In this document: piece by piece, positions 27,725-37,185 of the stretch
Layout: each line of letters starts with the position of its first letter
How positions within the stretch are numbered: the first letter of the stretch is position 1
From: a virus
Reading direction: 5' to 3' (one strand)
IMG/VR virus record: IMGVR_UViG_3300027710_001279
Span: 9,043 to 73,042 of that record
DNA length: 64,000 bases
Translations under genes and position numbers: made by a program
The notes under the pieces: model-generated
Told to the model about the DNA's origin: nothing
The model's input: only the letters and a program-made list of their open reading frames with translations
The model's database searches: none

Positions 27725-28206
27725 TAAAAAAAGTAATAGATACTATCAACGTTGATCCTATTTTAGATAGTTTTTTTAAACTTAATAAAGATATAGTATG
27801 GACAATTTATCCGCAAGGACAGCAAGTTGGATTACAATATAAACCAAACGAAGACCATTGGTCAAGTGCAGTAGGAAAAAGTCAAGGTAAAGAACTAGAA
27901 TACACTGAATTAAATCCTTTCTTTAAAGATACAATATTCGAAACTATTATTAACCAATATAATTTAAAAAGAACTAGATTAATGTGGGTTAATCCAAAAT
28001 CATGTTATAGCTTACACCAAGATGAAACTCCAAGGATTCATATTCCATTGATTACAAACTCCGAATGTTATTTTTTATTCCCACCCGGAATGATGTTTTG
28101 CTTAGATGTAAATTCAGTATGGTGGGTAAATACAAAATTAAAACATACATTCTTAAATTGTTCAGAAGAACCAAGATTACATCTTGTTGGAGTAATTGAA
28201 AAATAA
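27721..28206 (+). CDS. Asp/Asn beta-hydroxylase-like Fe(II) oxygenase
   Basis: YSLHQD, RIHIPLITN, KHTFLN, PRLHLV. Confidence 0.75.
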   Translation: MIKKVIDTINVDPILDSFFKLNKDIVWTIYPQGQQVGLQYKPNEDHWSSAVGKSQGKELEYTELNPFFKDTIFETIINQYNLKRTRLMWVNPKSCYSLHQDETPRIHIPLITNSECYFLFPPGMMFCLDVNSVWWVNTKLKHTFLNCSEEPRLHLVGVIEK

Positions 28207-28213
28207 CCCAAAT

Positions 28214-28233
28214 GTGTTGTAAAAATACAACAC
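28214..28233. promoter_or_regulatory. Palindromic operator-like site upstream of a sigma70 promoter
   Basis: GTGTTGTA-AAAA-TACAACAC; core repeated at 28763-28778. Confidence 0.5.
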
Positions 28234-28242
28234 TAAAAGAGG

Positions 28243-28271
28243 TTGACAAGTTGGTAAAACCGTGTTATAAT
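28243..28271 (+). promoter_or_regulatory. Consensus sigma70 promoter
   Basis: TTGACA-17-TATAAT; spacer shares TGGTAAAACCGTGT with the promoter at 33871. Confidence 0.85.
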
Positions 28272-28280
28272 ATATGTAAC

Positions 28281-28466
28281 ATGATTAATATACACCCAAC
28301 ACTTAACCCACTTGAAGTTATCCTTGTCGAAGAGGATATGGCTAAAAAGGGGATTACACACTATACAATGACACAGGGCAACGACTGCATCTGGGTCTAC
28401 TATGGTCCAATGAACCTCTATTATATATTTAAAGAAGGACGTATTCATGACATCCAAATTGATTAA
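28281..28466 (+). CDS. Hypothetical phage protein
   Basis: ATG directly after the promoter. Confidence 0.6.
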   Translation: MINIHPTLNPLEVILVEEDMAKKGITHYTMTQGNDCIWVYYGPMNLYYIFKEGRIHDIQID

Positions 28467-28656
28467 AGTTATGCAAGAGACCACAGAGTGGTCCGATGGT
28501 GGCTCCAATCACACGTATATATTTAAAGATAAGCCCACAGGTCGTAGTGCCGCGGCCATTGCCTACATACCGGCAGGTTCTAAGATAGTGCAACGTTTCA
28601 AGAAGCCTATTAACTTAGACCTTAAGGGCAGGACGTTTGTAGAGTTGACAGACTGA
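28447..28656 (+). CDS. Hypothetical phage protein
   Basis: ORF track; overlaps the previous gene. Confidence 0.6.
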   Translation: MTSKLIKVMQETTEWSDGGSNHTYIFKDKPTGRSAAAIAYIPAGSKIVQRFKKPINLDLKGRTFVELTD

Positions 28657-28673
28657 TAATTTTCTAGTATAAT
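28645..28673 (+). promoter_or_regulatory. Consensus sigma70 promoter for tRNA-Arg
   Basis: TTGACA-17-TATAAT, 7 nt before the tRNA. Confidence 0.8.
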
Positions 28674-28680
28674 AAGACAA

Positions 28681-28757
28681 CTGACTGTAGCTCAACTGGA
28701 TAGAGCAACAGCCTTCTAAGCTGTAGGTCGGGGGTTCGAGTCCCTCCAGTCAGGCCA
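28681..28757 (+). tRNA. tRNA-Arg(TCT)
   Basis: Cloverleaf; ACAGC-CT-TCT-AA-GCTGT; CCA encoded. Confidence 0.95.
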
Positions 28758-28809
28758 AATTCGTTGTAAAAATACAACAAAAATAATTTGCCAAAAATGC
28801 AAAAAGTGG

Positions 28810-28838
28810 TTGACAACGAGACTAAATAAATGTATAAT
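28810..28838 (+). promoter_or_regulatory. Consensus sigma70 promoter of the leader/tRNA operon
   Basis: TTGACA-17-TATAAT with CTAAATA in the spacer. Confidence 0.85.
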
Positions 28839-28896
28839 TAACACATAGACAGCAATGATGCTGTTTATGGAAACAAAAGGTTTTAAGAGAAATAAA

Positions 28897-29043
28897 ATGC
28901 AATCGTGCAATAAACATCAACAATTTAATACGATGCCCAAACAGGCAGGTGTAATAGCCTCCAATTGGTCAACGATTGATTGTGGTAGTTTATCATATGA
29001 TCGCACACCAGAGATTACCAGGGTCCGGGAGGACTTAATGTAA
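28897..29043 (+). CDS. Putative attenuator leader peptide (48 aa, all 20 amino acids)
   Basis: MQSCNKHQQFNTMPKQAGVIASNWSTIDCGSLSYDRTPEITRVREDLM*; AAGAGA SD-like; 3' end inside the antiterminator. Confidence 0.6.
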   Translation: MQSCNKHQQFNTMPKQAGVIASNWSTIDCGSLSYDRTPEITRVREDLM

Positions 29044-29078
29044 ATGTAAGTTTACACTTAAACTCCAAGGACCCTAGG
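29018..29078 (+). promoter_or_regulatory. Antiterminator hairpin
   Basis: CCAGGGTCCGGGAG pairs with CTCCAAGGACCCTAGG; inner TTAA-TGTAAA/TTTACA-TTAA stem. Confidence 0.7.
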
Positions 29079-29105
29079 ATTAAAACCCTGGGGTTTTTTG
29101 TTTTT
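29071..29105 (+). terminator. Intrinsic terminator, mutually exclusive with the antiterminator
   Basis: ACCCTAGG-attaaaac-CCTGGGGT followed by TTTTTGTTTTT. Confidence 0.85.
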
Positions 29106-29117
29106 GGAAAAAGAAAA

Positions 29118-29279
29118 ATGATAGAACAAGATAAGAAGAAACAACGAGAAGTTGAGTTTATACAACAGTATACTCTATCCAAAGAAGATTTTCGTAAGAT
29201 GGTCTTAGAAAAGATGGAACGTGCTAAGGTATATAGTCAAGCCGTTAGAAAGCGCGAGATTGCTCAAGAGCGATTGTAG
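29118..29279 (+). CDS. Small charged helical protein (53 aa, not in ORF track)
   Basis: MIEQDKKKQREVEFIQQYTLSKEDFRKMVLEKMERAKVYSQAVRKREIAQERL*. Confidence 0.55.
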   Translation: MIEQDKKKQREVEFIQQYTLSKEDFRKMVLEKMERAKVYSQAVRKREIAQERL

Positions 29280-29498
29280 ACCGCAAAGTGTGAATAGGTA
29301 GCAACGCGAGCTACGGGATGCACTTAAAACATGTCTCAAATGGGCGGCAACTAGGATGGAATCCCTTGTGTGGGACTAAAAATCAGTTCGTATTAAAGCA
29401 TTCTTTAAGAACAGGCAGCCTAAGTATTTTAGAGTGCTTTAATACACACTCTCTACTTCCGTTGACTGGAAGGACAGGGCACGTAGTGCCGAGAGTGT
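29280..29498 (+). ncRNA. Unidentified structured RNA(s)
   Basis: GTATTAAAGCATTCT/AGAGTGCTTTAATAC stem (29390-29445); three-way junction ACACTCTC/GAGAGTGT enclosing CTTCC/GGAAG and GGCAC/GTGCC. Confidence 0.4.
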
Positions 29499-29508
29499 TA
29501 TCTATTTT

Positions 29509-29595
29509 GGAGATGTAGGAAAATTGGTAACCCCAGTGGACTGTAAATCCGCCGCCCGAAAGGCACTACTGGTTCGACTCCAGTCGTCTCCACCA
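29509..29595 (+). tRNA. tRNA-Tyr(GTA)
   Basis: GTGGA-CT-GTA-AA-TCCGC; long variable arm; CCA. Confidence 0.93.
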
Positions 29596-29600
29596 AATTT

Positions 29601-29675
29601 GGTCCCATAGTATAGCGGTAAGTATAGCGGCTTGTCACGCCGTCGGCAGGGGTTCGATTCCCCTTGGGACCGCCA
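29601..29675 (+). tRNA. tRNA-Asp(GTC)
   Basis: GCGGC-TT-GTC-AC-GCCGT; CCA. Confidence 0.95.
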
Positions 29676-29681
29676 AATTAT

Positions 29682-29756
29682 GCTCGGTTCGTCTATCGGT
29701 AAGGACGCTAGCCTTTCAAGTTGGAAAGACGGGTTCGATTCCCGTACCGAGTACCA
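29682..29756 (+). tRNA. tRNA-Glu(TTC)
   Basis: CTAGC-CT-TTC-AA-GTTGG; CCA. Confidence 0.93.
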
Positions 29757-29763
29757 AATAATA

Positions 29764-29853
29764 GGAAGCGTGGCAGAGTCCGGCTTATTGCAACAGTCTT
29801 GAAAACTGTCGGCTCGAAAGGGTCCGTGAGTTCGAATCTCACCGCTTCCACCA
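29764..29853 (+). tRNA. tRNA-Ser(TGA)
   Basis: ACAGT-CT-TGA-AA-ACTGT; long variable arm; CCA. Confidence 0.95.
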
Positions 29854-29860
29854 AAAGAGG

Positions 29861-29888
29861 TTGACATTCTACTTAATTCGTGTATAAT
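29861..29888 (+). promoter_or_regulatory. sigma70 promoter inside the tRNA array
   Basis: TTGACA-16-TATAAT. Confidence 0.75.
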
Positions 29889-29895
29889 TATATAT

Positions 29896-30009
29896 GCGAC
29901 CGTAAGTGGAATATGGCAGACCTCCCGCTATGCTCATAGCATAGAATGGGGACGGGGCGATGAGTCTAACTCGCAGCCTTTGCAGGTTCAAGCCCTGCCG
30001 GTCGTACCA
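29896..30009 (+). ncRNA. Aberrant 114-nt tRNA-like RNA
   Basis: Acceptor GCGACCG/CGGTCGT-ACCA and T arm GCAGG-TTCAAGC-CCTGC are normal; central arms are enlarged (CTATG-CTCATAG-CATAG; GAGT-CTA-ACTC). Confidence 0.7.
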
Positions 30010-30013
30010 AATT

Positions 30014-30104
30014 CGAGAGTGGGCAGGATGGTAATGCAGCTGATTGCTAATCAGTAGACCAGCTTAAAACTGGTCACAGGGTTCGACTCCCTGACTCTCG
30101 GCCA
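30014..30104 (+). tRNA. tRNA-Ser(GCT)
   Basis: GCTGA-TT-GCT-AA-TCAGT; long variable arm; G73-CCA. Confidence 0.93.
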
Positions 30105-30108
30105 ATTT

Positions 30109-30182
30109 GTATCCCTGGTGTAATGGCAGCACCGCGGTCTCCAAAACCGTCAGTCAAGGTTCGAGTCCTTGGGGGTACGCCA
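30109..30182 (+). tRNA. tRNA-Trp(CCA)
   Basis: GCGGT-CT-CCA-AA-ACCGT; CCA. Confidence 0.95.
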
Positions 30183-30188
30183 ATCAAC

Positions 30189-30265
30189 GGTGACCATAGT
30201 GTAAAGGTTTAGCACCGCACTCTGTGAAAGTGCTAGAATGGGATCGTTCCCCATTGGTTACCCCA
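30189..30265 (+). tRNA. tRNA-His(GTG)
   Basis: GCACT-CT-GTG-AA-AGTGC; G-1:C73; atypical T loop ATCGTTC. Confidence 0.9.
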
Positions 30266-30275
30266 AGGAGCTATA

Positions 30276-30686
30276 ATGGAAAAACTAAAAACATTCAATA
30301 TTTTGAAAGGTTCTGTTCGCAGGTTCGATGAACTGCTAGGACGAACATTGTATCGTGTATCTGCAGATGAGGCAGAACTAACATTGTATCTGTCGGATAC
30401 AAACTATGTAAGATTCTGTCACCACCAAGATTGTTGCGAAAGTGTTTACATAGAAGATATCTGTGGAGATCTCAACGACCTTGTTGGGGCACCTCTAGTA
30501 GAAGCTGAAGAAGTTTCTAACTATGATGATGGCCCAGTAGATAGTAGCGATGAATCTTACACATGGACATTTTATCGTTTCCGCACACGGAAAGGTAGTG
30601 TGTCAGTTCGATGGTATGGGTCCAGCAATGGATACTATTCCGAAAGTGTCAGCGTAGAATTTGTTGACACTACAATACCCGGATAG
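30276..30686 (+). CDS. Hypothetical phage protein within the tRNA array
   Basis: AAGGAG SD; HHQDCCESVYIED...WYGSSNGYYSE; stop codon lies inside tRNA-Ile. Confidence 0.75.
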   Translation: MEKLKTFNILKGSVRRFDELLGRTLYRVSADEAELTLYLSDTNYVRFCHHQDCCESVYIEDICGDLNDLVGAPLVEAEEVSNYDDGPVDSSDESYTWTFYRFRTRKGSVSVRWYGSSNGYYSESVSVEFVDTTIPG

Positions 30687-30751
30687 CTCAGTGGTAGAGC
30701 AGCGCCTTGATAAGGCGTTGGTCGCAAGTTCAAATCTTGCTCCGGGTACCA
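30677..30751 (+). tRNA. tRNA-Ile(GAT)
   Basis: GCGCC-TT-GAT-AA-GGCGT; CCA. Confidence 0.95.
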
Positions 30752-30755
30752 ATTT

Positions 30756-30830
30756 ACCGCTGTCGTATAATGGAGTATACCCCTCGCTACGAACGAGGAA
30801 ATGGAGGTTCGATTCCTTCCGGCGGTACCA
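30756..30830 (+). tRNA. tRNA-Arg(ACG)
   Basis: CCTCG-CT-ACG-AA-CGAGG; CCA. Confidence 0.93.
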
Positions 30831-30836
30831 AATAAT

Positions 30837-30912
30837 GGGACCATAGCTCAGTTGGTAGAGCAGTAGACTTTTAATCTATTGGTCGGGAGTTCGAATCTCC
30901 CTGGTCCTACCA
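30837..30912 (+). tRNA. tRNA-Lys(TTT)
   Basis: GTAGA-CT-TTT-AA-TCTAT; CCA. Confidence 0.95.
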
Positions 30913-30916
30913 TAAC

Positions 30917-30992
30917 AGACATATAGCATAGTGGCTAATGCAGTTCCTTCATACGGAAAAGATCGTTGGTTCAAGTCCAACTATGTCTACCA
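30917..30992 (+). tRNA. tRNA with CAT anticodon (elongator Met, or Ile2 if lysidinylated)
   Basis: TTCC-TT-CAT-AC-GGAA; CCA. Confidence 0.88.
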
Positions 30993-30999
30993 ATTCAAT

Positions 31000-31075
31000 A
31001 CCAACTTAGCTGATGTGGTCATAGCAACGGTTTGAAGCACCGTGGAATGAGGTTCGATCCCTCAAGTTGGTACCA
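31000..31075 (+). tRNA. tRNA-Phe(GAA)
   Basis: ACGGT-TT-GAA-GC-ACCGT; CCA. Confidence 0.92.
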
Positions 31076-31082
31076 AGTTTGT

Positions 31083-31156
31083 TCCCGGATAGTGTAGTGG
31101 TAACACAACAGACTTTGACTCTGCTATTGTAGGTTCGATTCCTACTCCGGGTGCCA
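31083..31156 (+). tRNA. tRNA-Gln(TTG)
   Basis: CAGA-CT-TTG-AC-TCTG; CCA. Confidence 0.93.
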
Positions 31157-31177
31157 CAAAAATGTTTTAAAAAACCG

Positions 31178-31206
31178 TTGACAGATCTTAAAAAAGACTG
31201 TATAAT
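31178..31206 (+). promoter_or_regulatory. Consensus sigma70 promoter inside the tRNA array
   Basis: TTGACA-17-TATAAT. Confidence 0.85.
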
Positions 31207-31213
31207 AATTACT

Positions 31214-31244
31214 TGTTAAGCAATTAACACCGTTCTTTAAAAAT
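31214..31244 (+). promoter_or_regulatory. rrn-like boxB-boxA antitermination element
   Basis: TGTTAA-GCAA-TTAACA GNRA hairpin then CGTTCTTTAAAAAT, right after the promoter. Confidence 0.6.
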
Positions 31245-31258
31245 ATAATTTGATATTT

Positions 31259-31345
31259 GCCCGAGTGGTGAAATAGGTAGACACAAGAGACTTAAAATCT
31301 CTCGCTCTAACAGGCGTGCCGGTTCGATTCCGGCCTCGGGTACCA
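31259..31345 (+). tRNA. tRNA-Leu(TAA)
   Basis: AGAGA-CT-TAA-AA-TCTCT; long variable arm; CCA. Confidence 0.95.
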
Positions 31346-31512
31346 TTAGTTGATAGCATTCAGTGGGTATCGTATATGGACGCATATACTAGGCGGGCTA
31401 GTCGGGCCATCGATCAGTCCTAACACAACCACAGCAATGGCTTAGGAAGGGAAGCACCCGACTCCAAAATTCGCTCGTCGTCATAGACTGTGAATACTAT
31501 CAACTAATGGTA
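31341..31512 (+). ncRNA. Unidentified ~170-nt RNA closed by a ~22-bp stem
   Basis: TACCATTAGTTGATAGCATTCA pairs with TGAATACTATCAACTAATGGTA; GC-rich interior. Confidence 0.5.
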
Positions 31513-31518
31513 TTAAAT

Positions 31519-31594
31519 GTCCCGTTCGTCTAGAGGCCTAGGACACCACCCTTTCACGGTGACTACACCAGTTCGAATCTGGTACGGGACGCCA
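31519..31594 (+). tRNA. tRNA-Glu(TTC), second divergent copy
   Basis: CACC-CT-TTC-AC-GGTG; CCA. Confidence 0.95.
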
Positions 31595-31602
31595 AAGTTT
31601 TA

Positions 31603-31692
31603 CCCGCAGTAGCTCAAGGAGAGCAGGTCGGCTTATATCCGATTAATCTAGATAAGGTCCAGGATGGGGTTCGATTCCTCACTGCGGGACCA
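31603..31692 (+). tRNA. tRNA-Ile(TAT) with long variable arm
   Basis: CCCGCAG/CTGCGGG-ACCA; GTCGG-CT-TAT-AT-CCGAT; ~20-nt variable region. Confidence 0.75.
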
Positions 31693-31721
31693 TTGACAGT
31701 TTATAAATATTCTGTTATAAT
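31693..31721 (+). promoter_or_regulatory. sigma70 promoter with nested TATAAATA
   Basis: TTGACA-17-TATAAT; TATAAATA at 31702-31709. Confidence 0.8.
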
Positions 31722-31729
31722 AGTTTTAT

Positions 31730-31806
31730 GCCCAGGTGATGGAATTGGTATACGTGTTGGTCTTAGAAGCCAAATTTTGCGAGTTCGAGTCTCGCCCTGG
31801 GCACCA
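31730..31806 (+). tRNA. tRNA-Leu(TAG) lacking the long variable arm
   Basis: TTGGT-CT-TAG-AA-GCCAA; 5-nt variable loop; CCA. Confidence 0.9.
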
Positions 31807-31888
31807 TATTGAAGCACATTAAAGATAGGGTCGTAGCGGTTCTATGAACTTTAATACATACCAAGGTAGTTAGTGTGTTTCAATATGG
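31804..31888 (+). other. Long spacer hairpin between tRNAs
   Basis: CCATATTGAAGCACA/TGTGTTTCAATATGG. Confidence 0.55.
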
Positions 31889-31962
31889 GGGTGTAGCTCA
31901 GTTGGGAGAGCGCCAGCTTTGCAAGCTGGATGTCGCAGGTTCGATCCCTGTCACCTCCACCA
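31887..31962 (+). tRNA. tRNA-Ala(TGC)
   Basis: CCAGC-TT-TGC-AA-GCTGG; G3:U70; CCA. Confidence 0.95.
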
Positions 31963-31968
31963 GTTTAT

Positions 31969-32044
31969 TCCCTAGTAGCTCAGCGGTAGAAGCACCTGAC
32001 TGTTAATCAGGGTGTCGGTGGTTCGATCCCACCCTGGGGAGCCA
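31969..32044 (+). tRNA. tRNA-Asn(GTT)
   Basis: CCTGA-CT-GTT-AA-TCAGG; CCA. Confidence 0.95.
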
Positions 32045-32064
32045 GTTTTTTTAAGGATTTAAAT

Positions 32065-32241
32065 ATGTCAAAAGGTAGTAGCCCTAGGCCATATAGTGTT
32101 AGCCAAAAACAATTTGCTAATAACTTTGATGCAATTTTTCGCAAGCCTGATCCTAGGATAGTCGAAGAACAACAAATTGAAGATGAAGAATTCGAAAGAA
32201 TTGCTCAATCAAGTCAAGTTAAAGATACTACAAAAGATTAA
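32065..32241 (+). CDS. Small hypothetical protein (58 aa, not in ORF track)
   Basis: AAGGA SD; MSKGSSPRPYSVSQKQFANNFDAIFRK... Confidence 0.65.
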   Translation: MSKGSSPRPYSVSQKQFANNFDAIFRKPDPRIVEEQQIEDEEFERIAQSSQVKDTTKD

Positions 32242-32249
32242 TAATTAAA

Positions 32250-32324
32250 GCCGACTTAGCACAGTGGTAGTGCAATCGCCTTGTAAGCGATAGGTCATCA
32301 GTTCGAATCCGATAGTCGGCACCA
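32250..32324 (+). tRNA. tRNA-Thr(TGT)
   Basis: ATCGC-CT-TGT-AA-GCGAT; CCA. Confidence 0.94.
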
Positions 32325-32327
32325 AAT

Positions 32328-32401
32328 GCGGGGTTAGTTTAATGGTAAAACAGCAGATTTCCAATCTTCGGTCGAGAGTTCGATTCTCTCACTCCGCTCC
32401 A
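32328..32401 (+). tRNA. tRNA-Gly(TCC)
   Basis: AGA-TT-TCC-AA-TCT; U73-CCA. Confidence 0.92.
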
Positions 32402-32407
32402 ATTTTC

Positions 32408-32483
32408 GGGTCGTTAGCTCAGTTGGTAGAGCGCCTGCCTTACACGCAGGATGTCGGCAGTTCGAGCCTGTCACGACCCACCA
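32408..32483 (+). tRNA. tRNA-Val(TAC)
   Basis: CCTGC-CT-TAC-AC-GCAGG; CCA. Confidence 0.95.
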
Positions 32484-32489
32484 GTATTT

Positions 32490-32566
32490 CGGAGTGTAGC
32501 ACAGCCTGGTAGTGCGCCTGGTTTGGGACCAGGAGGTCCAAGGTTCGAATCCTTGTACTCCGACCA
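32490..32566 (+). tRNA. tRNA-Pro(TGG)
   Basis: CCTGG-TT-TGG-GA-CCAGG; CCA. Confidence 0.95.
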
Positions 32567-32575
32567 AGTTTTGTA

Positions 32576-32856
32576 AGACACATGGGTTGACCACAACGCC
32601 ACGCATCAAGGTAAGGTGTCTATAGTGTAAGTAGCAGGTTTGGTCATGCTTACACACAATCCCAACGTTCCGGGTGTCTCCGGATAGTGTGACCCACACG
32701 ATGAGAAGTAGTGTGACAACTACGGGTGGTAGTCTTTAAACCGAAAGGCCGCTAGCAATGCGAGAACGGTCCCTGTCGGGAAGCGGGTGGAAGGAGTGTG
32801 TGATGGGTATGATAGCGTCATATCTTGATACTCTATAATTACCGCCGGGGGATGCA
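32576..32856 (+). ncRNA. Unidentified ~280-nt multi-hairpin RNA
   Basis: Stems AGACAC/GTGTCT, GTGTAAGTA/TGCTTACAC, TCCGG/CCGGA, GTGTG/CACAC, GTAGT/ACTAC, CC-GAAA-GG, GGGTATGA/TCATATCT; no credible ORF. Confidence 0.55.
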
Positions 32857-32859
32857 GAG

Positions 32860-32927
32860 CATATATAAACACACTCTAGCCAAACGGCAACAAGTGGGCT
32901 CATGCCCATGAAGTGTGTTTATATATG
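32860..32927 (+). other. Long spacer hairpin
   Basis: CATATATAAACACACT/AGTGTGTTTATATATG, perfect 16 bp. Confidence 0.6.
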
Positions 32928-32942
32928 TTTTGGGAGAATTAT

Positions 32943-33095
32943 ATGCCAATGTATGAGACAACTGTAAGAACACCACAGGGTGAAGAAAAGAAAAGAATCT
33001 ATGCGGATACTCCGCAAGAAGCTAAAAAACTTTTTGAACAACTGTACGGTGGACCAAGAGCAGTGCCATACATACCGCATATAATTCCAAGTTAA
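32943..33095 (+). CDS. Small hypothetical phage protein
   Basis: GGAG SD; MPMYETTVRTPQGEEKKRIYADTPQEAKKLFEQLYGG. Confidence 0.7.
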   Translation: MPMYETTVRTPQGEEKKRIYADTPQEAKKLFEQLYGGPRAVPYIPHIIPS

Positions 33096-33099
33096 TTAT

Positions 33100-33178
33100 C
33101 GCGGGGTAGGGGAGTCTAGTCGTCCCCGCCAGTCTCATAAGCTGGAGATCGGAGGTGCGAATCCTTCCCCCGCAACCA
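33100..33178 (+). tRNA. tRNA-Met(CAT), initiator-like
   Basis: CGCGGGG/CCCCGCA with C1:A72 mismatch; CT-CAT-AA; lacks the canonical 3 G-C anticodon pairs; T loop TGCGAAT. Confidence 0.85.
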
Positions 33179-33201
33179 TTTTTTTAAACGTAAAGGTATA
33201 T

Positions 33202-33432
33202 ATGGCTATTAAACAACTAAGTCGCGGTACAACAATTGACACTGAAACATGTGTAGAAATGGTCGGGGGCAATCGATTTGATCTAGTATTGATTGCGGCT
33301 GTTAGAGCTAGAGAACTAGCACGTCAACATCGCCATGCTGAAAACAAAGGGCAGTTAAATGCTCCTGTAGCCGCTTTGCTTGATATCCAAGAAGGCAGAG
33401 TTGGTAACGAATATCTTAAAAGAATTCGTTAA
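33202..33432 (+). CDS. rpoZ: RNA polymerase omega subunit homolog
   Basis: CVEMVGGNRFDLVLIAAVRAREL...PVAALLDIQEG matches the omega NRF.LV..AA.RARQ and P.V.AL.EI..G motifs. Confidence 0.85.
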   Translation: MAIKQLSRGTTIDTETCVEMVGGNRFDLVLIAAVRARELARQHRHAENKGQLNAPVAALLDIQEGRVGNEYLKRIR

Positions 33433-33438
33433 TTAAAT

Positions 33439-33516
33439 GCAACGGTGGCAGAGCGGCCCAATGCAACGGATTGCAAATCCGTAAAACCGGGGGTTCAAAT
33501 CCCTCCCGTTGCTCCA
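33439..33516 (+). tRNA. tRNA-Cys(GCA)
   Basis: ACGGA-TT-GCA-AA-TCCGT; U73-CCA. Confidence 0.94.
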
Positions 33517-33540
33517 ATATCAAATTATAAATATTTTAAT

Positions 33541-33614
33541 GCGGGTATGATGTAAAGGTAACCTGAAACCTTGCCAAGGTTTATTTCCGAGTTCGATTCT
33601 CGGTACCCGCTCCA
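33541..33614 (+). tRNA. tRNA-Gly(GCC)
   Basis: AAACC-TT-GCC-AA-GGTTT; U73-CCA. Confidence 0.92.
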
Positions 33615-33647
33615 AACAACACGGCCCTACCCTCTAGTAACATAGTT

Positions 33648-33854
33648 CTACGGTGGGGTTTTTCTTTTTGCGTTATATAATCTTTCTTTGATTTCGTTGC
33701 GGACAATGTAGTCTGTGGAAGCGATTCTTGCCAACCACCCAGATAATAGCCCACGTTGATAGATTAATGTTTCCATTTTATCGCCCTTATAACAGAGTTC
33801 GAGTAACTCGTCGAGCTCTTTTTGGATCTCTTCAAGGTGGGTTTTTGGCTTCAT
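33648..33854 (-). CDS. Hypothetical protein
   Basis: ORF preceded by TATAAATA on the minus strand. Confidence 0.55.
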   Translation of the reverse strand: MKPKTHLEEIQKELDELLELCYKGDKMETLIYQRGLLSGWLARIASTDYIVRNEIKERLYNAKRKTPP

Positions 33855-33870
33855 AATATATATTTATAGG

Positions 33871-33899
33871 TTGACAAACTGGTAAAACCGTGTTATAAT
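33871..33899 (+). promoter_or_regulatory. Consensus sigma70 promoter
   Basis: TTGACA-17-TATAAT, near-duplicate of the 28243 promoter. Confidence 0.85.
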
Positions 33900-33923
33900 A
33901 TATACATAGCAAGGAGCAATATA

Positions 33924-34322
33924 ATGGAATTTCTCGTCGAAACTCGTAGCGTAAAGAAACGTAAATTTATAGAGGCAATTTTGCCCTCTATGATTAAACA
34001 ACTTAAATTGGAAAACAGTAAGAAAGTTTTGCTGGTTCGAGTTGCCAATGAGTGCGATGGACAGGGTATGACTATGCCACTGAATGGATTAGATGCCTAT
34101 GTCGTAGTTGTCAAGCCAGGTTGGTTTGCCGATATGGGTGTTACCCTTGCACACGAGATGGTTCACGTGCGTCAAATGGCCAAAGGTATTCTCAAAGTAG
34201 AAAATGGTGTTAACTACTGGCGTGGGAAGAAATACAGCAAGAAGACTAAGTATTTGGACATGCCTTGGGAACAAGATGCGTTTTCAAAGCAAGAACTTAT
34301 TTTTAGGAGGGCTGTAGAATAA
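33924..34322 (+). CDS. Zincin-like (HExxH) phage protein
   Basis: TLAHEMVHVRQ...PWEQDA. Confidence 0.75.
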   Translation: MEFLVETRSVKKRKFIEAILPSMIKQLKLENSKKVLLVRVANECDGQGMTMPLNGLDAYVVVVKPGWFADMGVTLAHEMVHVRQMAKGILKVENGVNYWRGKKYSKKTKYLDMPWEQDAFSKQELIFRRAVE

Positions 34323-34528
34323 TGGAAATCTCAAGAGCAGAACAAAGTGTTATAAAATATAATCTAGAACAGTACCGCTTAGATCAAGCTCGTTTGGAAA
34401 AACAGCGAGAACAAGACTACGCCAAAAAGATTGAAGAACGTAGACTTGATCAAGTTATAGCAGAACGAGTATCAAGAAATCTTCGTTTAGATTTGGACAA
34501 GGGTCGCATTTTAGATATAGAATGTTAG
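34322..34528 (+). CDS. Hypothetical coiled-coil protein
   Basis: ORF track; translationally coupled. Confidence 0.6.
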   Translation: MEISRAEQSVIKYNLEQYRLDQARLEKQREQDYAKKIEERRLDQVIAERVSRNLRLDLDKGRILDIEC

Positions 34529-34537
34529 GAGGCAATT

Positions 34538-35074
34538 ATGCCATGGATTGAAAATGTAGGTCTTGGAGATATTCCAAAAGGTCGGCATCACGATGCTGGC
34601 GAGAATTCGATGTTGATTCAGATTGTTGATCCGGCAATGGAGTTTCCTACCCCTATGCACAAGTTCAAAGAGACTCATCAGTTTGAGTTTTTGGATGTAG
34701 AGGAAAAGGACGAAGTGTTGGAAGAAGCTATGAAGTGTAGTCACGAACAAGCTGCCGAGTTGGTTCGCCTACTACAACACGCATTGGCTAATCGAATGAA
34801 TGTAGTCGTGCATTGTCATGCAGGTGTTTGTCGAAGTGGTGCAGTCTGCGAAGTTGGCGTCATGATGGGTTTTAATGATACTGAAGTCTTCCGTAGTCCT
34901 AACCTCCTAGTCAAGCATCGTATGATGAAGCACTTAGGTTGGACCTACGACGAGAACGAGCCTCACTCTATTAACGGTATAGGGCTCGATCCAGATTGGA
35001 CCAACAACAACGAAAAGGTGTTTACACTCGCAGGCGCAAGACGAGAGCGTAGACTAAGAGAAGGTGATATTTAA
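34538..35074 (+). CDS. Cys-based (dual-specificity/PTP-like) phosphatase
   Basis: VHCHAGVCRSG = HCxxGxxR. Confidence 0.88.
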   Translation: MPWIENVGLGDIPKGRHHDAGENSMLIQIVDPAMEFPTPMHKFKETHQFEFLDVEEKDEVLEEAMKCSHEQAAELVRLLQHALANRMNVVVHCHAGVCRSGAVCEVGVMMGFNDTEVFRSPNLLVKHRMMKHLGWTYDENEPHSINGIGLDPDWTNNNEKVFTLAGARRERRLREGDI

Positions 35075-35087
35075 AAAGGAGGGCAAG

Positions 35088-35693
35088 ATGCCTAGTGTAT
35101 TTTTAGTAAGCGATACGCACTTTGGACATACCGGCGTCTGTCGCTTCACACGTAACGATGGTGTTACAAAACTTCGCCCATGGGAATCTGCTGAGGAAAT
35201 GGACGAAGCAATGGTTAAAGCGTGGAACGAACAGGTAAAGCCCACTGACAAGGTTTACCATTTAGGTGACGTTGTTATCAATCGTAAAGCGTTAAAAATT
35301 ATGTCAAGATTAAACGGTGACAAAGTTTTAATTCGTGGTAACCACGATATCTTTAGGGATGATGAGTATAGAACTTACTTCCGTGAATTACGTGCCTATC
35401 ATGTTATGAACGGGATGATCTTGAGCCATATCCCGTTACACTCAGAGTCCATGGGACGCTTTGGTGTTAACATTCACGGTCACTTACACGCAAACCGTGT
35501 GAAGAAGGCTCGCGGTGTTGATGCACGTACTGGAGAAGTTTTATACAGCGATGAAAACGATGTTCGTTACCATTGCGTTTGTGTAGAACAAACTCCAAAC
35601 TTTGCGCCTATACTGTTTGAAGATGTCATTAAGAACATCGAAGCAGAAGGTGGTAGTGTAGGTTTTAAGAACGGCAACGGTCCGACAATGTAA
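35088..35693 (+). CDS. Calcineurin-like metallophosphoesterase
   Basis: SDTHFGH, HLGDV, RGNHD, SHIP, IHGHLH; AGGAGG SD. Confidence 0.9.
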   Translation: MPSVFLVSDTHFGHTGVCRFTRNDGVTKLRPWESAEEMDEAMVKAWNEQVKPTDKVYHLGDVVINRKALKIMSRLNGDKVLIRGNHDIFRDDEYRTYFRELRAYHVMNGMILSHIPLHSESMGRFGVNIHGHLHANRVKKARGVDARTGEVLYSDENDVRYHCVCVEQTPNFAPILFEDVIKNIEAEGGSVGFKNGNGPTM

Positions 35694-35694
35694 T

Positions 35695-35811
35695 ATGATC
35701 TACATTACTAACAAATACAATTCCATCCGACTACCCAATGAACCGGGTATGTTAGATTGGTTATTAGAAAATTATCCTAATTCAGGATATCACGTAGTAG
35801 AGATAAAATAA
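35695..35811 (+). CDS. Very small hypothetical protein (38 aa)
   Basis: MIYITNKYNSIRLPNEPGMLDWLLENYPNSGYHVVEIK* fills the gap exactly. Confidence 0.45.
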   Translation: MIYITNKYNSIRLPNEPGMLDWLLENYPNSGYHVVEIK

Positions 35812-35812
35812 T

Positions 35813-36280
35813 ATGCTAAAATGTTATCAATTGATTGGAGTGCCTGGGTCCGGCAAATCTACTTGGGTAGATAAGCAGGCCTGGGCTTTTTCTTGTGCAA
35901 AAGTTAGCACAGACAAATGGGTTGAAATTTATGCTAAAGAAGTAGGTCGTACCTATTCCGAAGTGTTTACGGATTTCATGCCTACTGCTGTAGACCTAAT
36001 GGCTAAAGAAGTTATTGTAGCACGTGAAATGAATCGTGACATTATTTGGGATCAGACCAGCACGACCGTTGCAAGTCGAGCTAAAAAGTTTCGTATGTTG
36101 CCGGACTATGAACATATTGCCGTAGTGTTTAAGACCCCTGAGCATACAGAACTTATGCGTCGATTGATGAGCCGTCCGGGCAAAGACATTCCAGATCATG
36201 TTATTGCTAGCATGATTGCCAGTTGGGAAGATCCAACTGAAGAAGAAGGCTTTAAAGAAATAAGATATATCGGTCCTTAG
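35813..36280 (+). CDS. P-loop kinase (AAA_33/polynucleotide-kinase-like)
   Basis: GVPGSGKST, IIWDQT, R...R lid, EEGF. Confidence 0.85.
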   Translation: MLKCYQLIGVPGSGKSTWVDKQAWAFSCAKVSTDKWVEIYAKEVGRTYSEVFTDFMPTAVDLMAKEVIVAREMNRDIIWDQTSTTVASRAKKFRMLPDYEHIAVVFKTPEHTELMRRLMSRPGKDIPDHVIASMIASWEDPTEEEGFKEIRYIGP

Positions 36281-36345
36281 TTCAATGGATAGAATGCTTG
36301 GCTTCGAACCAAGCGGTGTGGGTTCGATTCCTGCAGGACCGGCCA
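36271..36345 (+). tRNA. tRNA-Arg(TCG)
   Basis: CTTGG-CT-TCG-AA-CCAAG; CCA; overlaps the kinase stop codon. Confidence 0.93.
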
Positions 36346-36354
36346 TCGTGTCGT

Positions 36355-37185
36355 TTAAATACAATATGCATTAGGACATTCTGTTTTAATTTTTTCTTTT
36401 AGATCTAACAGCCAGTTTCCCGAAATAAGTATATCGTATGGTTTGTTAAAATAATCTTCAACAACTTTTATGTTATTTTGATGATACTGGATAAGATCTT
36501 CCGAACTAATTGGACAGGTCATGTTAAACAATTGACTAAACTCTATTACATTATCAATGGTGTTTAAAAATAAATTATCTAAATTGTAAGGTATCCATCC
36601 GTTGGCAGCTTTTTTACTCATACTTGCGTAATTAAAAAAATATTTAATGGTCAGGTCTACACCGTTAGACATGTTTAATCTCAGTGCTGGTTTTTCAAAT
36701 GAATAGAAATATCCCCTGTCTATTATTTCTTTACTCTTTTCAATTAATTTTAAGTTTTTTCCTGCACACCTAATAACATCATCTTCAGACCCTCCTATAT
36801 TAACCGGAAGGCTCCATCTCTTAATCCATAGTAATATATAAAACAGCGGTGTTAGTTTGTTACTACATAATTTAATACCTGCAAGCCTGGGCAAATTAAT
36901 ATTGTTAAGATCGAGAAAATAATGAGTAGGTAATATTAAATTCTTTTCTGAATACGCTATATCTATTCTTTTGCAATCAGTATCGTTGATGATTAAAGAT
37001 TCAGGCCAATAAGGATTTTTTATGTCAATTCCAAAATTTGCAAAAGGATTTTCTAACTCGCATCGATTAATATCGGAAGTCATTGACGATTGTAAAGAAT
37101 AAAAACTGTCATCTTTAGAAATTTGAGAACATAAAAAATCCCCGCAAGACCCACCTGTGAACCCTAATAGAAAAATGTTTTTCAT
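36355..37185 (-). CDS. Hypothetical protein (possible sulfotransferase/P-loop-like fold)
   Basis: FTGGSCGDFL N-terminus; AT-rich. Confidence 0.45.
   Translation of the reverse strand: MKNIFLLGFTGGSCGDFLCSQISKDDSFYSLQSSMTSDINRCELENPFANFGIDIKNPYWPESLIINDTDCKRIDIAYSEKNLILPTHYFLDLNNINLPRLAGIKLCSNKLTPLFYILLWIKRWSLPVNIGGSEDDVIRCAGKNLKLIEKSKEIIDRGYFYSFEKPALRLNMSNGVDLTIKYFFNYASMSKKAANGWIPYNLDNLFLNTIDNVIEFSQLFNMTCPISSEDLIQYHQNNIKVVEDYFNKPYDILISGNWLLDLKEKIKTECPNAYCI

Follow-up and report, generated by a model that had tools for sequence, protein, structure and literature searches.

The window analysed here, a stretch of 64 kb, belongs to a viral contig of 73 kb that represents approximately 20% of a jumbo phage according to CheckV. 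The source is an uncultivated freshwater phage, with lake, subsurface, and wastewater metagenomes as origins. Between positions 28681 and 36345, ARAGORN detected 28 tRNA genes, all on the plus strand, as are the other features of the region described below. All 28 exceed the Rfam gathering score for tRNAs, and the set covers all 20 amino acids as an earlier note on this DNA had stated. The other parts which that note had named in this region were all found as well, and most of them are conserved among relatives. On the 73-kb contig, perfect sigma-70 promoters (TTGACA-N16-18-TATAAT) occur eight times compared to an expected 0.12, and seven of these eight fall on the plus strand at 28243-33899. 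One (28645-28673) precedes a solitary tRNA-Arg(tct) (28681-28757). The next (28810-28838), which is conserved in lineages L011, L026, L041, and L021, precedes a leader and attenuator unit followed by a small, conserved ORF of 53 amino acids (29118-29279; present in 4 of 32 lineages), the conserved non-coding spacer nc1 (29280-29508; six loci, 70-85% identity), and the tRNAs for Tyr, Asp, Glu, and Ser(tga) (29509-29853). Another perfect promoter (29861-29888) lies 5' of a tRNA-like RNA of about 115 nt (29896-30010) whose structure comprises an acceptor stem, a long arm resembling an anticodon arm, and a T arm; compensatory changes occur in 9 of its 33 pairs, and neither ARAGORN nor Rfam called it. 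The segment 30014-31156 contains the tRNAs for Ser(gct), Trp, and His, a DUF7448 ORF (30276-30686), and the tRNAs for Ile, Arg(acg), Lys, Met, Phe, and Gln. Further downstream, a perfect promoter at 31693-31721 is followed by the tRNAs for Leu(tag), Ala, and Asn, an ORF of 58 amino acids (32065-32241), four more tRNAs (Thr, Gly, Val, and Pro), the structured RNA nc4 with its core at 32664-32873, another small ORF that ends at 33095, and finally tRNA-Met, the whole segment running from 31693 to 33178. In the segment 33439-33672, tRNA-Cys and tRNA-Gly(gcc) are followed by a hairpin resembling a terminator, with a T run, at about 33623-33669, where the array ends.

The leader ORF (28897-29043 including the stop codon) consists of 48 codons and uses all 20 amino acids. 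An arm within its end (29018-29027) can pair with the 5' arm of an intrinsic terminator (29067-29098, T run thereafter), the element as a whole spanning 29018-29105. The antiterminator formed in this way competes with the terminator and has the lowest free energy of the predicted folds (-31.1 kcal/mol, z -2.6). The attenuator proposed in the earlier note has its leader ORF and both alternative hairpins, and the switch was found again in all seven lineages checked. If the end of the ORF is blocked, the terminator forms in 7/7 lineages; the minimum-energy fold of the free RNA is the antiterminator in six of them. All 20 amino acids are present in 52 of 61 leaders representing the family versus 2.6-3.5% of 48-residue windows. 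A literature search found no paper on an all-amino-acid leader. The attenuator can gate 29118-29853 only, a stretch with the tRNAs for Tyr, Asp, Glu, and Ser(tga) ahead of the next promoter.

A different kind of leader follows the perfect promoter at 31178-31206. It comprises a boxB-like hairpin (31214-31229) and the boxA element GTTCTTTAAAA (31232-31242), which starts 26 nt past the promoter, is the sole exact match to GYTCTTTAAMA within the 64 kb, and fits exactly the boxA consensus GYTCTTTAANA as given in a passage of PMC5725501. Across 594 kb of related loci, boxA matches number 35 on the plus strand and 13 on the minus strand. A promoter with at most one mismatch is located 7-56 nt upstream of 29 of the 35 plus-strand matches, and most of these lie 26-31 nt ahead of a tRNA. 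The hairpins scored better than 95% of shuffles in 15 of 23 unique boxA leaders and have at least eight different stem sequences with compensatory changes. The rrn-like arrangement described in the earlier note is a feature that recurs 5' of tRNA blocks in many lineages. In the window, the single boxA heads one tRNA block only; downstream of it lie tRNA-Leu(taa), the conserved spacer RNA nc2 (31346-31518), tRNA-Glu, and a tRNA-Ile(tat) of 90 nt (31259-31692). With at least seven separate promoters, the parts of the locus are not co-regulated, and the attenuator and the lone boxA could each serve just one block. The single integrated control that had been suggested for the locus was thus not borne out.

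Embedded between tRNA-Met and tRNA-Cys is a gene for a homologue of the RNA polymerase omega subunit (rpoZ; 33202-33432, 76 amino acids) with an extended N-terminus. Its assignment in the earlier note holds by curated cut-offs (Pfam RNA_pol_Rpb6, 30.2 bits, cut-off 26; NCBIfam rpoZ equivalog, 28.6 bits, cut-off 23.6), and in alignments with solved structures of E. coli omega, its residues 14-72 correspond to residues 6-64. One split (support 100/99) separates 36 distinct phage omegas from 61 bacterial ones, and our literature search yielded no report of a phage omega. No beta or beta' Pfam domain was detected in five relatives, one of them 100% complete, and hence the phage protein would have to act on the host RNA polymerase. 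Since neither a further promoter nor a terminator was found at 31693-33620, omega appears to be co-transcribed with tRNAs in the window. The abstract of one preprint reports that omega loss sensitises RNA polymerase to termination and reduces its processivity (PMC13192885), and a passage of another that Ala2 and Arg3 of omega contact ppGpp (PMC13192712). At the positions homologous to these two residues, the omega of the window has Thr-Thr. It is solely this changed N-terminus that hints at the stringent (ppGpp) resistance considered in the earlier note. Four loci retain the bacterial MAR/MAK start, and thus the loss of the ppGpp contact is not a trait of the family.

Beyond the array, the perfect promoter at 33871-33899 opens a segment (33871-34528) with two ORFs of 132 (33924-34322, with an HExxH motif) and 68 amino acids (34322-34528). 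They are followed by the genes of a Cys-phosphatase of the dual-specificity type (HCX5RS; 34538-35074), a metallophosphoesterase (35088-35693), and a P-loop kinase of the PNK family (35813-36280), and by the last tRNA gene, tRNA-Arg(tcg), at the operon end 3' of the kinase (36271-36345). This is the series listed in the earlier note, located in a separate operon. In the phosphatase, the HCxAGxCRSG motif is invariant among 20 homologues. Its nearest folds among the matches listed are the protein and lipid dual-specificity phosphatases VH1, OH1, and DUSPs (TM 0.36-0.54), and no RNA triphosphatase is among its best 50 fold matches. The metallophosphoesterase (PF00149, 30.1 versus a cut-off of 21.5; phrog_547, 1.5e-49) is most closely related to aq_1665, a functionally uncharacterised protein that is its one clear solved relative among the matches listed, and weakly to PdeM. 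Neither the phosphatase domain of Clostridium Pnkp nor lambda phosphatase is among the 50 matches listed. An RNA substrate is proposed for both phosphoesterases. The kinase (AAA_33, 7e-18) has an invariant P-loop, Asp34, and RxxxR motif, and the PDB sequences matched at E<1e-3, 14 in number, all belong to polynucleotide kinases or to seryl-tRNA(Sec) kinase. An RNA ligase, for which the earlier note had advised a search elsewhere in the genome, is absent from the 73-kb contig, but relatives encode a DraRnl-type RNA ligase (equivalog 193 bits, cut-off 151; PHA02142 OB domain) inside the equivalent operon, 5 nt from the phosphatase. In lineages L026 and L008 it sits between the 68-residue ORF and the phosphatase. 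Among 26 viral loci with a ligase at least 72% identical to the one in these two cassettes, the phosphatase, phosphoesterase, or kinase adjoins the ligase in 19, in several gene orders. PF09414 was absent from eight and RtcB from five relatives' records searched, including the sole complete relative (352 kb), which is also without the kinase. The ligase of the phage studied here may be encoded in the unsampled part of its genome or come from the host.

Synteny across relatives was one point on which the earlier note had staked its interpretation, and the parts indeed stay together. In 48 related viral loci, whose omegas are 45-99% identical to that of the window, omega lies within a same-strand tRNA array in 47 cases, and the phosphatase (37 loci), the phosphoesterase (36), and often the kinase (19) are nearby. 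Dereplication left 32 omega lineages, of which 31 have tRNAs, 25 the phosphoesterase, 22 the phosphatase, and 14 the kinase; with regard to the kinase, many of the loci are truncated.

A module for tRNA supply, rrn-like transcription, and RNA healing is a prediction well supported by these comparisons. We lean, if only slightly, towards a full explanation with five parts, in which the region would serve the early maintenance of translation in a phage dependent on the host RNA polymerase. The strong consensus sigma-70 promoters would fire upon phage entry, and the long untranslated transcripts would carry the full set of tRNAs as well as several small conserved RNAs. A leader peptide in which no amino acid is missing and none occurs more than a few times would gate the first multi-gene block. 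A ribosome at the leader stop codon would melt the antiterminator and let the terminator form, whereas a ribosome that is absent or stalled anywhere would leave the antiterminator intact and permit read-through transcription. As happens in rRNA operons, Nus factors of the host may be recruited by the boxB hairpin and boxA that precede a tRNA block, leading to elongation that resists Rho and pausing. Omega, made together with the tRNAs, would join the host RNA polymerase, where it most likely stabilises elongation; in the subclade of the window, it may in addition impair the ppGpp site, to whose formation it contributes. The neighbouring operon would supply a polynucleotide kinase acting on 5'-OH ends and a pair of phosphoesterases, which together heal the ends of cleaved RNA so that an RNA ligase can seal them, with the metallo-enzyme proposed to open 2',3'-cyclic phosphates and the Cys-phosphatase to strip the remaining monoester.

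Several observations could be read differently. Large phages commonly carry tRNA arrays, and the locus might be an ordinary codon-supply island of a large AT-rich phage, in which the genes for omega, the phosphatases, and the kinase would be early accessory genes without mutual relation that stay close together only because gene order is shared among related phages. The separate promoters, the protein phosphatases among the fold neighbours of the Cys-phosphatase, and the wide spread of phrog_547 phosphoesterases (2060 phage records of various kinds) would fit this explanation. It is unlikely, however, as the other flanking genes of the window are kept in just 0-2 of the 32 lineages compared to the 14-25 that retain the individual enzymes, as the gene order of the cassette shifts while proximity persists, and as several lineages have the RNA ligase in the cassette, separated by 5 nt. 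Conservation at the RNA level is also seen for the boxA leaders and the leader-ORF switch. For the leader itself, it is possible, if doubtful, that the 48 codons encode a small protein of the phage, followed by a terminator of its own, and that the arm pairing and the amino acid set are by-products. The 38 N-terminal residues are well conserved as a peptide among the 61 representatives, a few percent of random windows also hold all 20 amino acids, and in lineage L041 the free minimum-energy fold already is the terminator. Against this reading stands the C-terminal tail, which is hypervariable and read in a different frame in 11 of the 61 representatives, yet preserves the GGGUCC arm across two reading frames. 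In the antiterminator, moreover, one pair has changed in a compensatory way (A-U to G-C) and another by wobble, the single Cys occupies four alternative positions among the lineages, and the single Tyr relocates when lost.

The enzymes may also act on DNA ends, nucleotides, or phosphoproteins instead of RNA, for example in DNA-nick repair with a ligase-associated phosphoesterase or in erasing host phosphorylation signals, and their tRNA neighbourhood would then be incidental. The best curated family of the phosphoesterase is PdeM of the ligase-associated DNA damage response, although this match is weak (37 bits, 1.9e-9) and far under the cut-off of 150; the DNA-repair kinase PNKP of mammals is among the relatives of the kinase, and the phosphatase resembles protein dual-specificity phosphatases. 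We give this reading little chance, because the cassette ligase of relatives passes the cut-off for an ATP-dependent RNA ligase and has the OB domain, the closest relatives of the kinase are the RNA-repair enzyme Pnkp1 and a tRNA kinase, and a tRNA gene ends the operon that the array adjoins. A further idea is that the phage omega is a take-over factor or decoy, which displaces host omega and redirects or weakens host transcription rather than aiding that of the tRNA array. An N-terminus 4-11 residues longer in 43 of the 47 loci whose ORF could be read, the Thr-Thr in place of the ppGpp-contacting residues, and a perfect promoter of its own in several lineages are consistent with such a role. 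It is nevertheless highly unlikely given the location of omega among same-strand tRNA genes in nearly all loci, its co-transcription in the window, and its conserved beta'-binding core motif.

Under the preferred explanation of a region that maintains translation, the benefit to the phage would be tRNA supply and repair during starvation, host shut-off, or a tRNA-cleaving defence; a role against anticodon nucleases, as envisaged in the earlier note, is one conceivable form of it. In its layout, the tRNA set resembles the ribosomal RNA operons of the cell, with a boxB/boxA leader in front of one tRNA block.

Across the region at 28681-36345, ARAGORN predicts 28 tRNA genes, all on the + strand, which together serve all 20 amino acids, and 28/28 pass the Rfam tRNA threshold; the tRNA set for every amino acid proposed in the earlier note is therefore real. 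The array does not stand alone. In the 48 viral loci from IMG/VR that were compared, whose omega proteins are 45-99% identical, tRNAs lie on the strand of the omega gene in 47/48, and omega mostly sits near the 3' end of the array, often less than 80 nt from a tRNA. Within the flanks examined, the phosphatase is present in at least 37, the phosphoesterase in at least 36 and the kinase in at least 19 of the 48 loci, counts that are lower bounds as many loci end early. Merging loci with an omega core at least 95% identical leaves 32 lineages, in which omega is accompanied by tRNAs (31), the phosphoesterase (25), the phosphatase (22) and the kinase (14), and the genes that flank the region in the window are kept in 0-2 of the 32. 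The order of the enzyme genes changes among relatives and their proximity is kept. The synteny on which the earlier note had staked its reading is thus borne out, with omega, tRNAs, phosphatase and phosphoesterase found together across the 48 loci. Judged from sequence, the region is a conserved module for tRNA supply and rrn-like transcription, and probably also for the healing of RNA ends. In some of the related loci (identified by L-numbers), single genes have their own perfect promoter directly upstream: the phosphatase in L030, L035 and L043, and the phosphoesterase in L017 and L033. A gene of the dCMP/cytidine-deaminase family follows the kinase in L026 (14683-15228). Synechococcus phage BUCT-ZZ01, which provides the best match to the phosphoesterase, has no tRNA or omega annotated near that gene.

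Perfect sigma-70 promoters (TTGACA-N16-18-TATAAT) occur eight times on the contig, where 0.12 would be expected, and 7/8 lie on the + strand between 28243 and 33899. A terminator scan found no terminator on this strand between 29100 and 33600, and a hairpin followed by a T run, resembling a terminator, is located at about 33623-33669, 3' of the last tRNA of the array. The enzyme genes form a unit of their own behind promoter 33871. The idea of a single integrated control is not supported: the locus has at least seven promoters and consists of parts without one shared control. The promoters at 28243-28271 and 33871-33899 form a nearly identical 29-mer, spacer included, which suggests a duplication or the site of a common regulator.

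Behind promoter 28810, a conserved 5' hairpin is followed by a leader ORF of 48 codons, with a conserved start ATG at 28897 and its stop at 29041, and then by a terminator at 29067-29098. The minimum-energy fold of 29010-29105 is not this terminator but a long hairpin (-31.1 kcal/mol, z -2.6), formed by pairing of CCAGGGUCC, which lies within the end of the ORF, with the 5' arm of the terminator. Folding was compared in seven lineages, represented by the window and the related loci L011, L026, L041, L021, L027 and L016. In 6/7 the free RNA has the antiterminator as its minimum-energy fold, and the terminator forms in 7/7 once the ORF end is held unpaired. The latter result depends on a simplification of our own, in which a terminating ribosome is mimicked by barring from pairing the final 15 nt of the ORF, the stop and the 10 nt that follow. 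The antiterminator pairing carries one double change, from A-U to G-C, and a single wobble change. Its GGGUCC arm is read in two different frames among the lineages, and 11/61 representatives of the leader protein carry a 'GS/GF' tail instead of the 'RV/GV' tail; that the arm is kept across two frames points to selection on the RNA. The attenuator recognized in the earlier note is thus recovered, with a short ORF, an intrinsic terminator and, overlapping the end of the ORF, an antiterminator that excludes the terminator and is excluded by it, and it is credible, from the predicted structures, that this device senses translation.

All 20 amino acids occur in the leader of 7/7 lineages and in 52/61 cluster representatives from a large protein collection; among the other nine, Cys alone is missing from six and Cys together with Leu from two, and the ninth is a fragment of 36 aa. 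Windows of 48 aa that contain all 20 amino acids make up 2.6% in the long ORFs of the contig and 3.5% in 494 ORFs of the clade. Cys is found exactly once in 50/61 leaders, at one of four positions, and Tyr once in 54/61, next to Trp where the usual Tyr has been lost. These relocations are suggestive and may represent few events on the family tree. Clustered codons of one regulating amino acid were not found in the leader. An upstream 1:2 pairing was not seen in the leader RNA either, so that absent translation should also give read-through. Under standard wobble rules, 43/48 leader codons are readable by the phage's own tRNAs, so that the attenuator could in addition exert feedback on tRNA supply. 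The next perfect promoter follows at 29861, and this limits the reach of the attenuator to a span that comprises only the small ORF at 29118, a spacer RNA and the tRNAs for Tyr, Asp, Glu and Ser.

A second leader element heads the tRNA block behind promoter 31178. On the + strand, a boxB-like hairpin (31214-29; 6 bp, GCAA loop) begins 7 nt after the -10 element, and two bases after the hairpin stands the boxA GTTCTTTAAAA (31232-42), 26 nt after the promoter. This boxA fits GYTCTTTAANA, given as the functional consensus for Nus-factor boxA in PMC5725501, exactly, and nowhere else in the 64 kb is a slightly narrower pattern matched exactly. The pattern [GT][CT]TCTTTAA[AC]A, counted over 594 kb of related loci, occurs 35 times on the array strand versus 13 times on the opposite strand, and a promoter with at most one mismatch ends 7-56 nt upstream of 29/35 array-strand matches. 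The next tRNA, usually 26-31 nt from boxA, is Leu(taa), Leu(tag), Glu(ttc) or Ile(gat) in the relatives, two of which contain GCTCTTTAACA. Of 23 unique promoter-to-boxA leaders, 15 have, within their last 26 nt, a hairpin whose stability exceeds that of 95% of shuffles. The predicted boxB-like stems vary among the leaders, with at least eight different sequences (for example GTTAA/TTAAC, GTTGA/TCAAC, GCTGA/TCAGC and GCTAA/TTAGC), and such differing stems are what compensatory change looks like. The order of promoter, hairpin and boxA, the exact consensus match and the similar leaders before tRNAs in relatives all agree with the rrn-like boxB-boxA that had been suspected here. Nus factors bound to boxA make rRNA transcription resistant to Rho (PMC4807359, PMC6614801). 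By analogy, a long untranslated tRNA transcript would share the need of rRNA for such resistance.

The ORF at 33202-33432 is confirmed as an rpoZ homologue by curated cut-offs of both Pfam (PF01192, RNA_pol_Rpb6: 30.2 vs 26) and NCBIfam (rpoZ equivalog TIGR00690: 28.6 vs 23.6). Its residues 14-72 correspond in alignment to E. coli omega residues 6-64, with a conserved GNRFDLVL-AA-RAR core, and 21 PDB omega sequences match at E<=0.01. The family is represented in metagenomes by at least 117 clusters, mostly of 74-77 aa, and in IMG/VR by 48 loci; tblastn found no omega of this family in isolates among 50,697 phage records. Two matches in phage records were rejected as a bacterial gmk-rpoZ-spoT locus mislabelled as phage. 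Locus L002 (CAKLQH020000003.1 144721-156909), from the 'Acinetobacter phage MD-2021a' records, is a chromosomal stretch with pilus genes, ispH, gmk, rpoZ, spoT and bfr, and these records look like bacterial DNA filed as phage. In the omega tree, 36 distinct phage proteins are separated from 61 bacterial ones by one branch (support 100/99), with 84 alignment columns and a bacterial sample consisting of the best 80 matches among species-representative genomes. The phage omega is at most 47% identical to any of these best 80 cellular matches. Given the short alignment and the limited bacterial sample, one old acquisition is consistent with the tree, not proven. The best cellular matches, again at no more than 47% identity, come from both Gamma- and Alphaproteobacteria and do not allow the host to be named.

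Omega and beta' are a textbook pair. A beta or beta' Pfam domain was not found in the records of five relatives, one of them complete, in a search that very divergent polymerases could escape. Together with the host-type promoters, this makes the RNA polymerase of the host the likeliest partner of the phage omega. Five relatives (L014, L016 and L017-L019) have a perfect sigma-70 promoter of its own directly upstream of omega. Loss of omega sensitises the E. coli polymerase to termination and lowers its processivity according to a 2026 preprint (PMC13192885). A second preprint describes contacts of omega Ala2 and Arg3 with the 5' diphosphate of ppGpp at site 1, and reports that ppGpp site 1 slows elongation (PMC13192712). 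The window's omega has Thr10-Thr11 at the positions of Ala2-Arg3 and thus lacks the E. coli-type feature of site 1; with 23 residues before NRFD versus 14 in the bacterial type, its N-terminus is nine residues longer. Among the 47 loci with a readable ORF, four encode an N-terminus of bacterial length that starts with MAR or MAK, 13 have four extra residues, and 30, the class of the window, have 7-11. A weakened ppGpp site, as judged from these alignments, is plausible for the subclade of the window, not as a trait of the family.

Several RNAs other than tRNAs are interspersed in the array. A structured RNA of about 210 nt (earlier called nc4) lies at 32567-32912 on the + strand, between tRNA-Pro and a small ORF. 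Its conserved core (32664-32873) is 77-95% identical in 8 loci with distant omega lineages and shows a compensatory change in 18/48 predicted pairs; a separate 91-nt 5' part is conserved in three further loci, and no Rfam family was found for 32560-32920 even at E<=10. A perfect promoter of its own immediately precedes a tRNA-like RNA (29896-30010; about 115 nt), in which an acceptor stem with ACCA is combined with a T arm and with a long arm that ends in a 7-nt loop reading CAU (UAU in L030). Among four sequences, 9/33 of its pairs are compensatory, and it is called by neither ARAGORN nor Rfam. Further non-tRNA spacers of the array are located at 31346-31518, which is closed by a long stem, 29280-29508 and 31807-31886; two of them are conserved in relatives (in 4 and 6 loci). 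At E<=1, Rfam returned only tRNAs and chance matches over 10 kb, and ARAGORN and Rfam found no tmRNA. At 90 nt and with a long extra arm, the tRNA-Ile with UAU anticodon (31603-31692) departs from what is usual for tRNA-Ile. Within the array, an ORF of 58 aa (32065-32241), with no family match, is the most widely kept small ORF (26/48 loci, 17/32 lineages).

Four metatranscriptome runs from four studies match 0.07-0.08 of the window's sampled words. Short contigs from metatranscriptomes, with 90-99% likeness, cover pieces of the leader, spacers, tRNAs, the 32567-32912 RNA, small ORFs, the phosphoesterase and the kinase, but they are contigs in which DNA carry-over is possible and to which tRNAs of other organisms add depth, so that this coverage cannot show transcription. 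One such contig, from a single study, ends at 29099, that is, at the terminator of the leader.

The three enzymes predicted in the earlier note can all be assigned at the family level. For the Cys-phosphatase (34538-35074), the HCxAGxCRSG loop is invariant in 20 sequences; the structural model (pLDDT 82) has VH1, OH1 and atypical DUSPs as top Foldseek matches (TM 0.36-0.54), and of the Pfam families Tc-R-P is passed (29.1 vs 27) and DSPc is not reached (28.2 vs 33.5). The protein therefore carries an HCX5R(S/T) loop on a DSP fold. Foldseek gave family-level folds only, and the substrate of this phosphatase cannot be read from its fold. The metallophosphoesterase (35088-35693) passes the PF00149 cut-off (30.1 vs 21.5), and all metal-binding motifs (DxH, GD, GNH and GHxH, formed by D9, H11, G60-D61, G84-N85-H86 and H130-G131-H132-H134) are invariant in 22 sequences. 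Its sole clear solved relative is aq_1665 (1.6e-15), the function of which is unassigned; in Foldseek, the model (pLDDT 89.5) next resembles the small phosphodiesterases MJ0936 and Rv0805, Mre11 and LpxH. The Pnkp phosphatase domain was matched neither by sequence nor among the top-ranked folds, protein phosphatases are not among the listed folds that the model resembles, and the best curated family, the ligase-associated PdeM, remains far below its cut-off. In the kinase (35813-36280), the GxxGxGKST P-loop, D34 and the RxxxR lid (R117-R121) are invariant in 15 sequences. A PDB search with the single sequence found nothing, and relatives were reached only by a profile of the 15 homologues, which retrieved 14 PDB sequences at E<1e-3, all of them PNKs or PSTK. 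The closest are Pnkp1 (4xrp, 1.3e-7) and the kinase domain of CthPnkp (4gp7, 8e-6), and the others are seryl-tRNA(Sec) kinase, mammalian PNKP and T4 Pnk (E 1e-4); the next matches have E values of 0.18 or higher (shikimate kinase 0.33). The kinase is thus PNK-like in its motifs and its nearest solved relatives. The last tRNA, tRNA-Arg(tcg), is indeed present after it and overlaps the end of the kinase gene. The first gene of the operon (33924-34322) encodes an HExxH motif and is kept in 5/32 lineages; its product has only weak, sub-threshold matches to putative metallopeptidase families.

An ATP-dependent RNA ligase needs 3'-OH and 5'-phosphate ends. The earlier note suggested a search for an RNA ligase elsewhere in the genome. 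On the 73-kb contig, about 20% of the genome, none was found (PF09414, RtcB or a homologue of the relatives' ligase), but relatives encode one within the operon itself. Between the 68-aa ORF and the phosphatase, both L026, whose omega is 89% identical to that of the window, and L008 have an ORF of 342 aa, which reaches 193 bits against a cut-off of 151 for the DraRnl RNA-ligase equivalog and contains the PHA02142 OB domain. PF09414 was found in 2/10 records of relatives, one of them the L026 contig, RtcB in none of the five relatives' records examined, and a complete relative lacks the kinase, PF09414 and RtcB alike. Among the best 80 of 173 stretches with relatives of the ligase, at least one of phosphatase, phosphoesterase and kinase lies no more than 6 kb away in 23. 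Within the same best 80, cassette genes are linked in 19/26 loci at ligase identities of at least 72% and in 4/54 below. In many linked loci the start of the phosphatase follows the ligase by 5 nt, and kinase and phosphoesterase come in differing orders. The strongest case for RNA-end healing by the three enzymes, in the service of an ATP-dependent ligase, is made by this close and repeated linkage. In such a pathway, as the chemistry of the superfamilies suggests, the metallo-enzyme would open a cyclic phosphate and the Cys-phosphatase would remove the resulting monoester.

CheckV rates the 73,042-base viral contig as about 20% complete, and the whole genome should accordingly be that of a jumbo phage of some 350 kb; the module also occurs in a relative whose 352-kb record is rated as complete. 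A megablast of 28000-37000 against phage records found no close isolate relative, as all matches were single tRNA genes. The best protein link found is a 687-aa adenylate/guanylate-cyclase-like protein (11994-14057), which is 40% identical to a protein of Methylophilales phage Melnitz and 34% identical to one of Pelagibacter phage HTVC008M. In a search of sequencing runs, near-identical DNA was found in metagenomes labelled as lake water, freshwater, subsurface or wastewater or plainly as metagenome. Among 20 runs that match part of the window, 14 DNA runs from six studies contain at least 0.27 of its sampled words, and the best-matching run may be the source sample. Genes for sugar modification are abundant in the window, with an aminotransferase and two nucleotide-sugar epimerases (19329-20648; 25599-26537; 55661-56632). 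On the - strand, convergent with the last tRNA, a PP-loop protein (37182-37742) has a QueC-like C-terminal match (28.8 bits vs cut-off 22) and may have a role in 7-deazaguanine modification.

Of the translation-rescue reading in the earlier note, the conserved module, tRNA supply, rrn-like transcription and, probably, RNA end healing stand, and one shared control is not supported. Integration, resistance to ppGpp and an anti-defence purpose of the locus are offered here as hypotheses, as is a role against anticodon nucleases, which is borrowed from the biology of T4 and T5. Read jointly, the parts would form a self-contained bypass of host control over tRNA supply. A pan-amino-acid attenuator would let shortage or cleavage of any one tRNA raise read-through into the phage tRNA genes; Nus antitermination of the rrn type would act on the tRNA transcripts; an omega without ppGpp contacts would make the host RNA polymerase ppGpp-blind at site 1; and a split four-enzyme pathway would heal and seal RNA, giving the Cys-phosphatase a new role at RNA ends. 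We regard this reading as rather unlikely.

Both tRNA arrays and RNA repair have been described for phages. We know of no account of the way in which a phage ensures that a long untranslated tRNA array is transcribed, or of whether it senses the state of translation, and we found no open-access or bioRxiv paper that describes a phage-encoded omega, a boxA leader within a phage tRNA array or an all-amino-acid leader. The boxA leader, the omega subunit and the all-amino-acid leader attenuator are three conserved, testable elements of the locus. The phage omegas offer a natural set of N-terminal variants for studies of ppGpp site 1 and elongation stability. The attenuator, if real, would sense a failure of translation in general, not one specific to an amino acid, and through the enzyme cassette RNA repair would gain a Cys-phosphatase and a new family of phosphodiesterases. 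The locus also bears on how large phages survive tRNA-cleaving defences, and starvation in slow-growing freshwater hosts.

The trp, his and phe amino-acid operons are controlled by leader-peptide transcription attenuators, in which, as in the phage leader, the ORF end overlaps an antiterminator arm that competes with an intrinsic terminator. In contrast to these systems, the phage device would gate tRNA genes and has no run of regulatory codons; every amino acid is present, the rare ones mostly once. The boxB-boxA-boxC antitermination leader of proteobacterial rRNA operons is a target of Nus factors (PMC10250234, PMC3177189, PMC5725501). The phage leader shares with it the order of promoter, hairpin and boxA, the exact consensus match and the position at the head of a long untranslated transcript, but its boxA heads tRNA blocks instead of rRNA, and some phage relatives have several boxA copies per array. 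The omega is like that of E. coli in passing the rpoZ equivalog cut-off and in its conserved core motif, and differs in being phage-encoded and 76 aa long, without the acidic C-terminal tail, and with a longer N-terminus that has Thr-Thr for Ala2-Arg3.

Phage T4 uses a tRNA cluster, PseT (Pnkp) and RNA ligase 1 to reverse the cleavage of tRNA-Lys by PrrC. The locus resembles this system in its phage tRNA genes, the PNK-family 5' kinase, a putative end-healing phosphoesterase and, in relatives, an ATP-dependent RNA ligase. Unlike in T4, the cassette abuts the tRNA array here, and the putative healing functions are split among three small proteins. The phosphatases of the phage cassette belong to the metallophosphoesterase and Cys-phosphatase superfamilies rather than to the HAD type, and the relatives' ligase, missing from the window's contig, is of the DraRnl type with an N-terminal OB domain. 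As in Pnkp1-Rnl-Hen1 and in Pnkp-Hen1 of Clostridium thermocellum, a Pnkp-related kinase is accompanied by a metallophosphoesterase; unlike in these systems, an extra Cys-phosphatase is present and the phosphoesterase is unmatched to the Pnkp phosphatase domain. Finally, the tRNA arrays of T5-like and other large phages have been proposed to replace tRNAs lost to host defences. With these arrays the locus has in common a large same-strand tRNA array in an early region with consensus sigma-70 promoters, and it is set apart from them by the omega, the boxA leaders, the attenuator and the several non-tRNA structured RNAs that accompany its tRNAs.
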